A DNA stretch of 7,622 nucleotides from IMG/VR virus record IMGVR_UViG_2690316142_000009; one strand, given 5' to 3'. Made by a program: the position numbers and the translations under genes. The stretch is from a virus (Duplodnaviria > Heunggongvirae > Uroviricota > Caudoviricetes). Under the pieces are notes generated by a model. That model saw only the letters and a list, made by a program, of their open reading frames with translations, was not told where the DNA came from and did no database searches. Below, piece after piece: positions 1 to 6,656 of the stretch (within the stretch, counting starts at the first letter, position 1; every line of letters begins with the position of its first letter).

Positions 1-34
1 AGGAAGGAGTGTCCGTTAAACTCAGGCTACCTCA
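1..34 (-). mobile_element. Terminal inverted repeat (orfA-proximal end) of a second IS3-family copy whose body lies upstream of the window
   Basis: Bases 1-34 (AGGAAGGAGTGTCCGTTAAACTCAGGCTACCTCA) are identical 34/34 to 5645-5678, the orfA-proximal end of the complete IS at 4425-5678. Identity stops at 35 (GGTTATTCGC versus AAAACACGAT at 5679). Same orientation as the complete copy. Confidence 0.6.
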
Positions 35-711
35 GGTTATTCGCTTCTGGGCATGGGCGGATCAACAAATGATAGACGGTAATGCAGATTGTAACGCTCG
101 CGGCGTTACAAAAAGTGCAATAGATCGCATCACTTTTATGTCTGGTTTTGCTGATGCGTTAATTCAGGTTGGATGGCTGGTCGAAAATGACGGAGGGCTT
201 TCTCTACCTAACTTTGAACGTCATAACGGAAAAAGCTCTAAAAAAAACGGGCGGTTACAAACGAGCGAGTAACAAAAATACGCGAACTGAAACGAAAAGG
301 TAACGCTGCCAGCGTTACACAAACGGATCAAAAAGCGTTACCAGAGGAAGAGGAAGAGGAAGATCTAAATACTGATCTCCCCCTCGCCAAAAACGAGCGT
401 CTAAAAAATTCGAGCCGGAGGCTATTGAGCTGCCCGATTGGTTGCCGGAAACACTCTGGCATGAGTGGGTCCGGTTCAGACAGGCATTGCGAAAACCGAT
501 TCGAACGGAGCAGGGCGCTAACGGGGCGATACGGGAACTGGAAAAATTCCGTCAGCAGGGTTTTACACCTGAGCAGGTGATTCGACACAGCATCGCCAAT
601 GAATACCAGGGCCTGTTCGCGCCGAAAGGTGTTCGGCCTGAGACGTTGCTCCGACAGGTTAACACCGTCTCGTTGCCGGACAGTGCGATCCCGCCAGGCT
701 TCAGGGGGTAA
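35..711 (+). pseudogene. Remnant of a phage replication-initiator / replisome-organizer gene, 5' end removed by the IS and reading frame broken twice
   Basis: Three consecutive protein-like open stretches in different frames: frame 0 (35-272, ...FWAWADQQMIDGNADCNARGV...), frame 2 (open 242-577, KIRELKRKGNAASVTQTDQKALPEEEEEED) and frame 1 (open 376-711, ...KKFEPEAIELPDWLPETLWHEWVRFRQALRKPIRTEQG...). No ATG/GTG with an SD begins the frame-1 segment. Lies directly upstream of the DnaC-like gene, as initiator genes do in lambdoid phages. Family identity not verified. Confidence 0.45.
344..361 (+). repeat. (GAGGAA)x3 hexanucleotide repeat, encoding an acidic EEEEEE run in frame 2
   Basis: Direct reading: gaggaagaggaagaggaa at 344-361. 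Confidence 0.5.
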
Positions 712-717
712 CGGACC

Positions 718-1464
718 ATGAAAAATATTGCGACAGGCGGCGTTCTGGAACGCATCCGCCGACTGACCCCGCCACATGTAACCGCCCCATTCAGAACGGT
801 AGCGGAGTGGCGCGAGTGGCAACTTGCTGAAGGCCAGAAACGTAGCGAGGAGATCAACCGCCTGAATCGCCAGTTGCGGGTGGAAAAAATTCTGAATCGC
901 TCAGGCATCCAGCCGTTGCACCGTAAATGCTCGTTTGCGAATTACCAGGTGCAGAACGACGGCCAGCGATACGCGTTAAGCCAGGCGAAATCCATCGCCG
1001 ATGAACTGATGACCGGGTGTACAAATTTTGCGTTCAGCGGAAAACCTGGTACCGGGAAGAATCACTTAGCGGCAGCTATCGGGAATCGCCTGCTGAAAGA
1101 CGGTCAGACAGTGATTGTGGTTACCGTGGCTGATGTTATGAGCGCCCTGCACGCCAGCTATGACGACGGGCAGTCAGGCGAAAAATTTTTGCGGGAGCTG
1201 TGCGAAGTGGATCTGCTGGTTCTTGATGAAATTGGCATTCAGCGCGAGACGAAAAACGAGCAGGTGGTGCTGCACCAGATTGTTGATCGCCGGACAGCGT
1301 CGATGCGCAGCGTGGGGATGCTGACAAACCTGAACTATGAGGTGATGAAAACATTGCTCGGCGAGCGGGTGATGGATCGCATGGTCATGAACGGCGGGCG
1401 CTGGGTGAATTTTAACTGGGAGAGCTGGCGTCCGAATGTTAGCCATTCGAGGGTTGTTAAGTAG
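718..1464 (+). CDS. DnaC-like AAA+ helicase loader (functional analogue of lambda P; compare Rac YdaV, also 248 aa)
   Basis: 248-aa ORF. Walker A-like FSGKPGTGKNHLAAAIG and Walker B-like LLVLDEIG in DnaC-like spacing. G-rich SD-like stretch (GGGGG) 9 nt upstream of the ATG. Positioned after the initiator remnant. Confidence 0.85.
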   Translation: MKNIATGGVLERIRRLTPPHVTAPFRTVAEWREWQLAEGQKRSEEINRLNRQLRVEKILNRSGIQPLHRKCSFANYQVQNDGQRYALSQAKSIADELMTGCTNFAFSGKPGTGKNHLAAAIGNRLLKDGQTVIVVTVADVMSALHASYDDGQSGEKFLRELCEVDLLVLDEIGIQRETKNEQVVLHQIVDRRTASMRSVGMLTNLNYEVMKTLLGERVMDRMVMNGGRWVNFNWESWRPNVSHSRVVK

Positions 1465-1478
1465 TTTCAGGAGGATTT

Positions 1479-1901
1479 ATGGCGAAACCTTTTACTCCCG
1501 AACAGCGGGAAGAACTGAAGACGCGAATTGTGGAACTCGTGCATCAGGACGGTCGGGTCACGATTCGGCAGTTGTCAGATGAAACAGGTATCAGTCGTGC
1601 GTCTGTCGGTCGCTTATGCATAGAACTGGTCGCAAGTGGTGATGTATATAATTCTGGCTACGGCTTATTCCCGTCTGAACAGGCTCGCAAGGACTGGCAA
1701 AGCGCCCGCAAAAAACTCTCGAGAGTAAAGGTGAGGAAACCGGTTGTTGTTGATCCGGACCTTATCTGGTCATTACCTGACGGAGAAATACGCCGCTACG
1801 ACAGGCGCCTGAATATAATCTGTCGCGAGTGCCGGAAGAGCGAAGCTATGCAGCGTGTACTGGCTTTCTATCAGGGTAATTTTCAGGAGGCGATACTGTG
1901 A
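1479..1901 (+). CDS. Hypothetical protein with N-terminal winged-HTH-like segment (140 aa)
   Basis: GGAGG SD 5-6 nt upstream of ATG 1479. HTH-like stretch VTIRQLSDETGISRASVGRLCIELVASGDV. Starts 15 nt after the DnaC-like gene and is immediately followed by the next gene. Function not recognised. Confidence 0.6.
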   Translation: MAKPFTPEQREELKTRIVELVHQDGRVTIRQLSDETGISRASVGRLCIELVASGDVYNSGYGLFPSEQARKDWQSARKKLSRVKVRKPVVVDPDLIWSLPDGEIRRYDRRLNIICRECRKSEAMQRVLAFYQGNFQEAIL

Positions 1902-2462: not shown

Positions 2463-3149
2463 ATGACCCCAATAAACATATTTATGACAGTTGCTGATTT
2501 CAAACGGCCCAAATTGGAGCTCCCAAACGGGGCAAACAAACTACTACTGCACTCTTGCTGTGCTCCATGTTCCGGTGAGGTGATGGAGGCGCTTCAGGCC
2601 TCGGGAATCGACTACACCATCTTTTTCTACAACCCGAACATTCATCCTCAGAAAGAGTATTTAATTCGTAAGGATGAGAATATTCGCTTTGCTGAACAAC
2701 ACGGCGTGCCGTTTATTGATGCTGATTACGACACAGACAACTGGTTTGAACGAGCCAAAGGAATGGAATGGGAGCCCGAACGAGGGATCCGTTGCACCAT
2801 GTGTTTTGACATGCGTTTTGAGCGGACAGCGCTGTACGCCGCTGAAAATGGTTTCAGTGTGATCAGCAGTTCACTGGGCATTTCACGCTGGAAAAATATG
2901 CAGCAGGTTAACGACTGTGGGCGGCGAGCCGTCGCGCATTATCCGGGCATGGTGTACTGGGATTATAACTGGCGCAAGCAGGGCGGCTCGTCCCGTATGA
3001 TTGAAATCAGCAAGCGCGAAAAATTCTATCAGCAGGAATATTGTGGCTGTGTGTATTCTCTGCGCGATACCAATCTACACCGCAAATCTCAGGGACGCCC
3101 TCTTATCAAAATTGGTCAACTCCACTACGGTAAAGAAGAGAAGGAGTGA
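2463..3149 (+). CDS. queH: QueH-like (DUF208) Fe-S protein, putative epoxyqueuosine reductase
   Basis: 228-aa ORF with Cys motifs [24 protein letters not shown] and YCGCVY, which I recall as characteristic of the DUF208/QueH family. No HMM run. Start uncertain: neither ATG 2463 nor in-frame ATG 2485 has an SD. Confidence 0.55.
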
Positions 3150-3261: not shown

Positions 3262-3328
3262 GCCCCAGTTAACATTACGCGTCCGGCAAGACGCTTAACA
3301 TTAATCTGAGGCCAATTTCATGCTTTGC
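3262..3328 (-). ncRNA. sok: Sok-like antisense RNA (approximate extent), antisense to the hok leader
   Basis: Minus-strand sigma70-like promoter: -35 TTGCCT (reverse complement of 3358-3363), 17-bp spacer, -10 TAACCT (reverse complement of 3335-3340). Transcription would start near 3328 and run antisense across the upstream ATG/leader region, as expected for Sok. 3' end not defined; no clean terminator found. Confidence 0.3.
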
Positions 3329-3376
3329 ACATGTAGGTTAGCCTCTTACATGCCGAAAGGCAAGGAGAAGCAGGCT

Positions 3377-3532
3377 ATGAAGCAGCAAAAGGCGATGTTA
3401 ATCGCCCTGATCGTCATCTGTTTAACCGTCATAGTGACGGCACTGGTAACGAGGAAAGACCTCTGTGAGGTACGAATCCGAACCGGCCAGACGGAGGTCG
3501 CTGTCTTCGTAGACTACGAATCCAGGAAGTAA
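3377..3532 (+). CDS. hok: Hok/Gef-family type I toxin (51 aa, membrane peptide)
   Basis: MKQQKAMLIALIVICLTVIVTALVTRKDLCEVRIRTGQTEVAVF... is a near-match to the Hok/Gef family as I recall it, closest to HokD/RelF. AAGGAG SD 10 nt upstream of ATG 3377. The 70-aa ORF-track entry (3320-3532) is the same frame extended to an upstream ATG. Confidence 0.9.
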   Translation: MKQQKAMLIALIVICLTVIVTALVTRKDLCEVRIRTGQTEVAVFVDYESRK

Positions 3533-4069: not shown

Positions 4070-4107
4070 ACTCCTGCTGTGTAACACCGTGCCACCGGAG
4101 AAAGCCG

Positions 4108-4424
4108 ATGGCACATATACAACTGGTCAAACAAACCTCTTCCGGATTACTTCTCCCGGCGACGCCGGAGAGTTGCGATTTTCTGCATCAAATCAAAACA
4201 GGTGAGTGGATACACGCAGACTTTAAGCGTGTGCGTAACTACGCATTCCACAAGCGTTTTTTCAAACTCCTGCAACTGGGATTCGATTACTGGACTCCGG
4301 TCGGTGGGGCGATCACGCCTCGCGAACGAAAACTGGTGTCCGGTTTCGTTGATTACCTGTGTGAATCAGTAGGCCGGGAACATACGCCAGCTCTGAGCGA
4401 AGCCGCAGAGCAATTGAGGTGTAC
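4108..4424 (+). pseudogene. DUF1367-like nin-region gene, copy 1, truncated after about codon 105 by the IS
   Basis: 4106-4424 is about 97% identical to 6055-6363 (the intact copy at 6057-6656). Identity ends exactly at the IS end (4425, TGAGGT...). The ORF then runs into IS sequence (LRCTGNSGHYHLFFF) to a stop at 4461. GGAG SD upstream of ATG 4108. Confidence 0.7.
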
Positions 4425-4457
4425 TGGCAATAGCGGACACTACCATTTGTTCTTTTT

Positions 4458-5276
4458 TTAAGCAGCCATCTGATGATATTTTTCCCTGAAGGCTGCCGGG
4501 GAGATATTCCCCAGACGAGAGTGACGACGCTGACGATTGTAGAAAATCTCAATGTATTCCCGTATTACTGAGATGGCTTCATCCCGGTTATTAAAACGAT
4601 AGTGGCTCAGGCTCTCATTTTTCAGCGTTCCCCAGAAGCTTTCCATCGGAGCGTTGTCGTAACAGTTACCTTTACGCGACATTGATGTTTTCAGACCAGA
4701 CTGCTCCTGTATGACCCGGTAATCGTATGCGCAGTACTGTGAACCTCGATCAGAGTGGTGGATTAGCCCGGCAGGTGGGCGCTGGCTCCTGAGCGCCATA
4801 AACAGGGCTTTACCTGTCAGCTCTTTTGTCATGCGCTCTCCCATGGCGTAGCCGACAATTTCGCACGTATAAACATCTTTGATGCCAGCGAGGTACAACC
4901 ATCCCTCCTGTGTGGCAACATACGTCAGGTCCGCCACCCAGACCTGATTTGGTGCTGTAGGAGCGAACGTCTGGTTCAGCAGATTTGGCGCAACTGGCAG
5001 ATTGTGGTTCGAGTTCGTAGTCGCTCTGAACTTGCGTTTCTGCTTACAGCGTAGCCTTAGCTCCTTACGAAGACGTGCCAGTCGGTCACGACCAACGATG
5101 ATGCCATTCTCTGCCAGCTCCGTCTGGAGCCGCCGGGTTCCATATGTTTCGCGAGTGCGGATATGTGCCACCTTAATCTCCAGTTTTAGCCGCTCATCAC
5201 TTTGTTTTCTGTCTGAGGGTTCATGCTGTACCCAGTTGTAATAACCGCTCCTGGATACACCAAATACCTGACACAT
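4458..5276 (-). CDS. IS3-family transposase OrfB (DDE catalytic domain), expected to be made as an OrfAB fusion
   Basis: 272-aa ORF. Its frame stays open upstream through the slippery site, and is -1 relative to orfA (manual translation: ...ILKK then SNSVFCTGVAEKYALIEQWRQQFPIEAMCQVFGV..., no stops). Confidence 0.85.
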   Translation of the reverse strand: MCQVFGVSRSGYYNWVQHEPSDRKQSDERLKLEIKVAHIRTRETYGTRRLQTELAENGIIVGRDRLARLRKELRLRCKQKRKFRATTNSNHNLPVAPNLLNQTFAPTAPNQVWVADLTYVATQEGWLYLAGIKDVYTCEIVGYAMGERMTKELTGKALFMALRSQRPPAGLIHHSDRGSQYCAYDYRVIQEQSGLKTSMSRKGNCYDNAPMESFWGTLKNESLSHYRFNNRDEAISVIREYIEIFYNRQRRHSRLGNISPAAFREKYHQMAA

Positions 5277-5311
5277 CGCTTCAATGGGAAATTGTTGTCG
5301 CCATTGTTCGA

Positions 5312-5614
5312 TTAACGCGTATTTTTCAGCGACTCCTGTGCAAAATACGCTGTTGCTTTTTTTAATATATCTCGCTCAAGGCGAGCTTCATTTAACGCCT
5401 TACGCAGTTGCAGAATTTCAGATTCCAGTTCAGCCACCGTGCGGGAACCAGGAGTACCGAGCCCTTTTCTGGCGGCGGTAACCCATTGTCCTAAAGTGCC
5501 TTCAGGAAGAGATAATCGGGAAGCGCCTTCACTGATCGAAAGTTGATTTTCAAGAACCGTTCTGACAGCTTCGGCTTTGAACTCTTTAGAGTAACGTTGG
5601 GTTTTTCTGCTCAT
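5312..5614 (-). CDS. IS3-family transposase OrfA (HTH DNA-binding / leucine-zipper component)
   Basis: 100-aa ORF starting about 30 nt inside the IS end. Heptad-like LxxxxxxL region (ELESEILQLRKALNEARLERDILKKA). Ends 15 codons after the slippery site. Confidence 0.85.
   Translation of the reverse strand: MSRKTQRYSKEFKAEAVRTVLENQLSISEGASRLSLPEGTLGQWVTAARKGLGTPGSRTVAELESEILQLRKALNEARLERDILKKATAYFAQESLKNTR
5357..5363 (-). other. Programmed -1 ribosomal frameshift slippery heptamer (A_AAA_AAA then G) joining orfA to orfB
   Basis: Minus strand reads TTA AAA AAA GCA in the orfA frame. The -1 frame from this point is open into orfB. Classic IS3-family arrangement. Confidence 0.6.
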
Positions 5615-5772
5615 TATTAGCTCCTTCTGATGCCATTCTATTTCAGGAAGGAGTGTCCGTTAAACTCAGGCTACCTCAAAAACACGATCATACACTAAAT
5701 CAGTAAGTTGGCAGCATCACCTTTTGTCTCTATGTTGATATAACCGTTTGTACTTATAAACCTGGAGGCATC

Positions 5773-5985: not shown

Positions 5986-6056
5986 TATTGGCATTAATTC
6001 TGGTATACTACATAACGGGCTGAACACCCATTCTACTGCGCCAGCGGAGAACTACG

Positions 6057-6656
6057 ATGGCGCATATACAACTGATCAAACAAACCTCTTCCGGATTACT
6101 TCTCCCGGCGACGCCGGAGAGTTGCGATTTTCTGCATCAAATCAAAACAGGTGAGTGGATACACGCAGACTTTAAGCGTGTGCGTAACTACGCATTCCAC
6201 AAGCGTTTTTTCAAACTCCTGCAACTGGGATTCGATTACTGGACTCCGGTCGGTGGGGCGATCACGCCTCGCGAACGAGAACTGCTGTCTGGTTTCGTTG
6301 ATTACCTGTGCGAATCAGTAGGTCGGGAACATACGCCAGCTCTGAGCGAAGCCGCAGAGCAATATCTGAATACAGTTGCGACACGCAGAACCCGGGATAC
6401 GGCATTGCTAAAGTCGTTTGAGGCTTTTCGCGAGTGGGTAACCATTCAGGCTGGATTTTACACCGAACATTTTTATCCGGACGGTAGCCGCGGGCGTCGG
6501 GCAAAATCCATCGCTTTTGCGAATATGGACGAAACCGAGTTTCAGCAGGTTTATAAATCTGTTCTGAATGTGCTGTGGAACTGGATTCTGTTCCGTAAAT
6601 TTTCCTCTCCGGAACAAGTCGAAAATGTGGCCGCGCAGCTGCTGGAGTTTGCGTAA
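6057..6656 (+). CDS. DUF1367-like nin-region protein (199 aa), intact copy
   Basis: GGAGA SD 7 nt upstream of the ATG. Stop overlaps the next start (TAATG). N-terminal 105 codons duplicated at 4108-4424. Family label from memory of nin-region proteins (YbcN-like), not verified. Confidence 0.7.
   Translation: MAHIQLIKQTSSGLLLPATPESCDFLHQIKTGEWIHADFKRVRNYAFHKRFFKLLQLGFDYWTPVGGAITPRERELLSGFVDYLCESVGREHTPALSEAAEQYLNTVATRRTRDTALLKSFEAFREWVTIQAGFYTEHFYPDGSRGRRAKSIAFANMDETEFQQVYKSVLNVLWNWILFRKFSSPEQVENVAAQLLEFA

Follow-up and report, generated by a model that had tools for sequence, protein, structure and literature searches.

Phage lambda carries its replication initiator gene, O, in the early right operon, immediately before the gene for the helicase loader. 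The O protein includes two domains separated by a charged linker, repeated palindromes occur within its coding sequence, and ori-lambda lies inside the O gene. Its partner in the lambda system is lambda P. YdaU, from the Rac prophage of E. coli K-12, is encoded after cro/ydaS-ydaT and before ydaV and matches DUF1376 (PF07120) at 2.7e-26; we found no mention of an initiator function in the literature on YdaU. As regards gene inactivation, Shigella provides the closest described class, that of pseudogenes with multiple lesions. Five insertion sequences (IS), IS600 among them, have expanded in every Shigella species, and in 12% of interrupted S. sonnei genes an IS is accompanied by another inactivating mutation (Hawkey et al. 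2020, PMC7373316).

The stretch of DNA analysed here (7,622 bp, referred to below as the window) belongs to a remnant lambdoid prophage of the S. sonnei type. Positions 35-711 almost certainly represent one interrupted gene, a dead copy of a prophage replication initiator. This gene resembles lambda O in its early-right-operon position just upstream of a helicase-loader gene, in its two-domain layout with a charged linker and in its internal palindromes, and it resembles K-12 ydaU in its position relative to cro/ydaS-ydaT and ydaV. The features of the gene and of its downstream neighbour are as follows.

35-239, plus strand: initiator pseudogene segment 1, residues 36-103 of the 262-aa protein; codons begin at positions divisible by 3.
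240-247, plus strand: A8 homopolymer; A6 (Lys-Lys) in intact E. coli genes, hence +2; the upstream frame stops at TAA 270-272.
248-376, plus strand: initiator pseudogene segment 2, residues 106-148, charged linker.
378-384, plus strand: the one TCCCCCT copy left of the TCCCCCTAAATCCCCCT of intact genes; stop of the middle frame at TGA 578-580.
379-711, plus strand: initiator pseudogene segment 3, residues 153-262 and stop codon, C-terminal domain.
718-1464, plus strand: ydaV, DnaC-like helicase loader, 248 aa, intact (NCBIfam PRK12377, 8e-154; Pfam IstB_IS21; PHROG 50).

Homology to the initiator starts at window 35. From the 34/35 boundary onwards the sequence matches E. coli prophage DNA with identities reaching 99.1%, and in these E. 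coli records the matching region is a single 789-bp CDS of 262 aa. The annotation given is 'hypothetical protein', except in a single record that has 'phage replication initiator YdaU family protein'. About 680 complete E. coli genomes contain 80% or more of the region, and in them the gene is annotated as a single CDS. Intact 789-bp/262-aa genes from four loci (L001, L002, L004 and L006) served as references, and alignment with these homologs identifies window 35-711 as the 3′ 227 codons of the 262-aa lambdoid initiator gene. Translation of the forward frames shows one frame open from the IS to the TAA at 270-272, a middle frame open from about 248 to the TGA at 578-580 and a last frame open from about 377 to the TAA at 709-711. 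At the amino acid level, segments 1 to 3 agree at 100% with the intact protein (residues 36-103, 106-148 and 153-262, respectively), a match far beyond chance. When the gene was repaired in silico by removing AA from the A run and putting back the missing 10 bp, the resulting 685-nt sequence differed from the intact gene of L004 at only one synonymous base (T-to-A, window 194), and its translation corresponded to residues 36-262 of the intact protein with zero amino acid changes. A full-length product is precluded three times over, by +2 at 240-247, by −10 at 378-384 and by IS600 at 34/35, and a full-length initiator cannot be made from this locus.

A preliminary description of this DNA had recognised three frame segments and two frame changes in 35-711, both of them −1, and had proposed to align the segments with intact homologs. 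The segments and changes are present, and +2 and −10 each equal −1 modulo 3. The alignment now locates both causes to the base and returns one gene, not separate genes. Placement of the first change at the A8 run (240-247) is confirmed by the A6 found in intact homologs. The second change had been placed within 376-578, with a C5 run noted at 378-382. The change itself is real and the run is there, at 379-383, one base further on; its length is unaltered, and the cause is instead a 10-bp repeat deletion. The overall reading, that of a decaying pseudogene, is borne out by the homolog alignment and by the recurrence of the lesions across assemblies.

In PHROG the intact protein hits entry 2509, 'replication initiation protein', along residues 1-262 (1.2e-89), with further matches to PHROGs 9474, 3926 and 678 ('O-like'). 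It gave zero Pfam matches even at E values up to 10, and NCBIfam assigned it to no family, the DnaT model scoring 16 bits against a cut-off of 201. In intact loci the gene order is HTH repressor, Cro, YdaT, initiator, ydaV. The gene can thus be labelled a putative lambda O-like replication initiator on the basis of PHROG and RefSeq names together with synteny. The only match to lambda O at the sequence level was the PHROG 'O-like' hit to the C-terminal part, and the partner encoded here is a DnaC-like ATPase in place of lambda P.

Comparison with K-12 Rac YdaU (L017 2120-2974) divides the protein in two. The C-terminal 124 residues of the intact protein are 81% identical to YdaU, whereas by BLASTP its N-terminal ~135 residues are unrelated to YdaU. 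Unlike YdaU, the intact protein has no match to the N-terminal DUF1376 model, and it possesses the YdaU-type C-terminal domain. Since this domain is all that is shared, the protein is not a DUF1376 member and is best described as a mosaic with a YdaU-type C-terminal domain. The module boundary falls within the repeat-rich linker, and relative to K-12 YdaU the presumed origin-recognition domain appears to have been swapped as a module. The RefSeq labels 'YdaU family' and 'DUF1376 domain-containing' on relatives rest on the C-terminal module only. Residues 170-262 also weakly match the C-terminal domain of DnaT (primosomal protein I; 2ru8, E 9.5e-5; 9zbt, E 3.2e-4), the similarity being confined to that domain. 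A DnaT-like C-terminal domain would fit a role in recruitment of the helicase loader.

Intact loci carry three GTAACGC-N(3-5)-GCGTTAC palindromes, one located 12 nt upstream of the ATG (L004 2173-2193) and two within the gene. The latter two are retained in the window, together with an extra half-site.

91-109, no strand assigned: palindrome GTAACGC-N5-GCGTTAC, candidate initiator binding site (iteron or operator), with zero chance matches expected.
300-318, no strand assigned: second palindrome GTAACGC-N5-GCGTTAC, candidate site in the linker between the two indels.
335-341, no strand assigned: extra half-site GCGTTAC, in the same inter-indel linker as the second palindrome.

Of the six GCGTTAC heptamers present across the window, five fall within 91-341, where 0.76 would be expected. 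These palindromes are candidate origin iterons or autoregulatory operators, and their location within the gene is arranged like that of ori-lambda. The IS insertion parts the upstream palindrome from the other two.

The second frameshift results from the loss of 10 bp, TCCCCCTAAA, which comprise one TCCCCCT repeat plus AAA and lie between two 7-bp direct repeats. A loss of this kind between direct repeats is typical of replication slippage, which is presumably how it arose. The deletion junction was absent from all 5,426 complete E. coli genomes: the 117 full-length matches were all 80-90% identical, that is, gapped. The linker also includes a second repeat.

343-363, plus strand: AGAGGA hexamer tandem repeat (Glu-Glu), in frame; 3 copies here, 3-7 in related assemblies.

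This repeat is a fast-evolving in-frame VNTR. Three copies are present in the window and in L007, L009, L010 and L012-L014, four in L005, six in L003, L011, L015 and L016 and seven in L008.

The first frameshift lies in an A run whose length is polymorphic among intact and Shigella-type loci (A6, A8 or A9). A9, which encodes Lys-Lys-Lys and is in frame, occurs in HE616528.1 (L008), the finished chromosome of S. sonnei 53G. An intact 261-aa S. dysenteriae protein (P0043) reads SSKKKR at this place, corresponding to A9 in frame, and its gene is without the 10-bp deletion. In the scored assemblies A8 was seen only in company with that deletion, and the A8 allele was absent from the 5,426 complete E. 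coli genomes (186-bp megablast query; no match of at least 99% among 684 full-length matches). A8 probably arose from an in-frame A9 by a −1 slip, along a path A6 to A9 to A8. The first step would be the in-frame gain of a Lys codon and the second a −1 slip, once lengthening had made the run less stable. The records for strain 53G conflict, since HE616528.1 has A9, yet a 113-aa A8-type product (P0002) is tagged SS53G_2911, from another assembly. This may reflect true variation of the run within 53G or else a homopolymer miscall in one of the assemblies; an A-run length taken from a single assembly may thus be off by one. In L008 the gene is called as a 224-aa product, which gave no entry in exact protein look-ups, and A9 alleles were counted by other means than such look-ups.

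The 5′ boundary of the pseudogene is formed by an insertion sequence.

1-34, minus strand: terminal 34 bp of IS600, the same as window 5645-5678, the end of a full copy; its transposase genes are on the minus strand, outside the window.

The full copy (4415-5678, 1264 bp) has TG...CA ends and orfA/orfB transposase genes and matches, at 100% identity, elements of S. sonnei plasmids that carry the annotation 'IS3-like element IS600 family transposase'. IS600 interrupts the initiator gene between codons 35 and 36. In sister loci with the identical junction (L003, L009-L012), a 3-bp target duplication, GGT, is found at both junctions. Sister loci keep the first 107 nt of the gene on the far side of the IS; L014 has since lost that far side together with the 5′ gene piece. 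The preliminary description had the gene losing its 5′ end to the IS. It was correct as to the insertion, while in sister genomes the 5′ end was not deleted; here the far side lies beyond the window. The IS event was a simple insertion, later than the indels. In the 5,426 complete E. coli genomes the IS junction was not found, no place covering at least 80% of the query.

The complete IS600 at 4415-5678 is oriented like the copy that ends at 34, so that the segment 35-4414 is bracketed by direct copies. It is without a 3-bp target duplication (ATT on the left flank, AAA on the right). A comparison of its flanks (4091-4414 and 6040-6363) showed that it truncates one copy of a DUF1367/NinB-like gene, and this truncated copy shares 96.6% identity with the beginning of the full copy at 6057-6656. 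To the right of this IS600, four other S. sonnei assemblies instead have an integrase fragment followed by modABC. This arrangement points to an IS600-mediated rearrangement in the genome from which the window comes.

The recurrence of the three lesions was scored in assemblies encoding either the identical YdaV protein or a chimeric 87-aa IS/ydaU ORF, which ends at the stop caused by A8. L002, whose ydaV start differs from the anchor, was not in the multi-locus alignment and was covered by the separate alignment of intact genes. The alleles are listed below.

L001, L002, L004, L006: A6, 10-bp unit present, IS600 junction absent; intact 262-aa gene.
L003, L007, L009-L016 (n=10): A8, 10-bp unit deleted, IS600 junction present, like the window.
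L005: A8, 10-bp unit deleted, IS600 junction absent.
L008 (HE616528.1): A9, 10-bp unit deleted, IS600 junction absent.

A8 and the deletion occur together in 11 of the 12 independent Shigella-type assemblies, ten of which also have the IS junction. The deletion is common to every Shigella-type locus, including both that are free of the IS, and the IS junction is always accompanied by A8, the deletion and the synonymous SNP at 194. Exact copies of the 87-aa chimeric ORF are found on 492 contigs named S. sonnei (481 index blocks), and the 113-aa product, which combines the native N-terminus with the A8 stop, is found on 159 contigs. Because L005 and L008 carry the deletion without the IS, the indels predate the insertion, and because the IS junction is found only with A8, the deletion and the SNP at 194, IS600 hit a gene that was already dead. 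Decay proceeded stepwise, through ordinary mutational processes. One TCCCCCT repeat and its spacer were deleted (−10 bp), probably by slippage, the run of Lys codons shifted in length to A8, out of frame with respect to both A6 and A9, and IS600 afterwards entered at codon 35/36 with duplication of GGT.

This reading has to be weighed against several others. Gene callers report 87-, 74- and 41-aa ORFs in S. sonnei assemblies, as would be expected if the three frame segments were separate small genes. The segments are however colinear and identical throughout to consecutive parts of one 262-aa protein, the 87-aa ORF takes its GTG start from within the IS, and the frame of the last segment lacks an ATG. 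That they are genes in their own right is therefore vanishingly improbable. A crude scan of window positions 1-1500 revealed no promoter-like sites. We give next to no credence to the suggestion that the frame changes are homopolymer sequencing or assembly errors, the gene being truly in one frame apart from the IS. Both sites do touch homopolymers (A8 at 240-247 and C5 at 379-383), and the two 53G assemblies disagree on the length of the A run. The second lesion, however, is the loss of a 10-bp repeat unit with no change in homopolymer length; A8 and the deletion recur in 11 independent assemblies, the A8-dependent 87-aa and 113-aa products are spread over hundreds of contigs, and with an A9 run the gene would remain broken by the deletion and the IS. 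With the same alleles in 11-12 independent assemblies and on 492 contigs, the lesions are genuine and lineage-specific and not errors of reading.

A decaying gene might still be read through. Transcriptional slippage on A runs of 8-9 is known in enterobacteria, segments 1 and 2 would be rejoined by just such a shift of −1 at the run, and the run is naturally polymorphic, which would suit a programmed or phase-variable slippage site (+1 A transcriptional, or −1 ribosomal on A AAA AAC) from which some functional initiator is made. In orthologs, however, the gene is a single ORF with A6 or A9, so that recoding is not conserved. Slippage would leave the other two lesions in place: the site of the 10-bp deletion offers no slippery heptamer, and the IS600 insertion deprives the gene of its first 35 codons, the start codon among them. 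A8 is seen only alongside the deletion. We regard productive slippage as exceedingly unlikely. The preliminary description had also ranked slippage at A8 as the less likely alternative, and rightly so, since it is unsupported and cannot fix the other two lesions. Very unlikely, too, is a related idea, in which a hypermutable tract of the initiator linker, made up of the A run and the hexamer repeat beside it, acts as a reversible replication switch in Shigella or E. coli lineages without the other lesions; switching would then occur by phase variation or transcriptional slippage and A8 would be a frozen 'off' state. The interpretation we retain is that of one initiator gene inactivated by two indels and, later, by IS600.

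The downstream gene is intact, as had been noted previously. In E. coli records ydaV, annotated 'ATP-binding protein', follows the 262-aa CDS by six bases, and the 248-aa protein encoded in the window is identical to the copies beside intact initiators in L001 and L004. Here ydaV stands behind an IS and two frameshifts, which may have a polar effect on its expression. Upstream and outside the window, ydaT is shortened in L005 and L008-L012 (101 or 131 aa, compared to 140 aa in intact loci), apparently a further step in the decay of the same operon. Genes for a QueH-type epoxyqueuosine reductase (2463-3149) and a Hok-family toxin (3320-3532), named QueH and HokD by the E. coli record that matches here and located between the replication genes and the nin region, are apparently intact. 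In S. sonnei assemblies the wider region includes several IS of different families, inverted lysis genes upstream and a truncated integrase by modABC. Given a heavily rearranged remnant and a dead initiator, this prophage is probably unable to start its own replication, which is consistent with its general decay.

The practical consequence is one of annotation: the 87-, 74- and 41-aa ORF fragments should be merged as a single pseudogene, and beyond this the locus is of little import. It does provide an example of Shigella genome decay in which a repeat-mediated deletion, homopolymer slippage and IS600 have piled up in a dispensable prophage gene and in which comparing strains reveals the order of the lesions. 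Both the A run and the hexamer repeat differ among strains and could serve as typing markers.

The locus illustrates ordinary gene decay of a class already known in Shigella. It shows the same combination as the multi-lesion pseudogenes described there, an IS600 interruption together with frameshift indels (PMC7373316), and does not differ from them in any essential respect. What it adds is base-level detail, the order of events and the A6/A8/A9 polymorphism.
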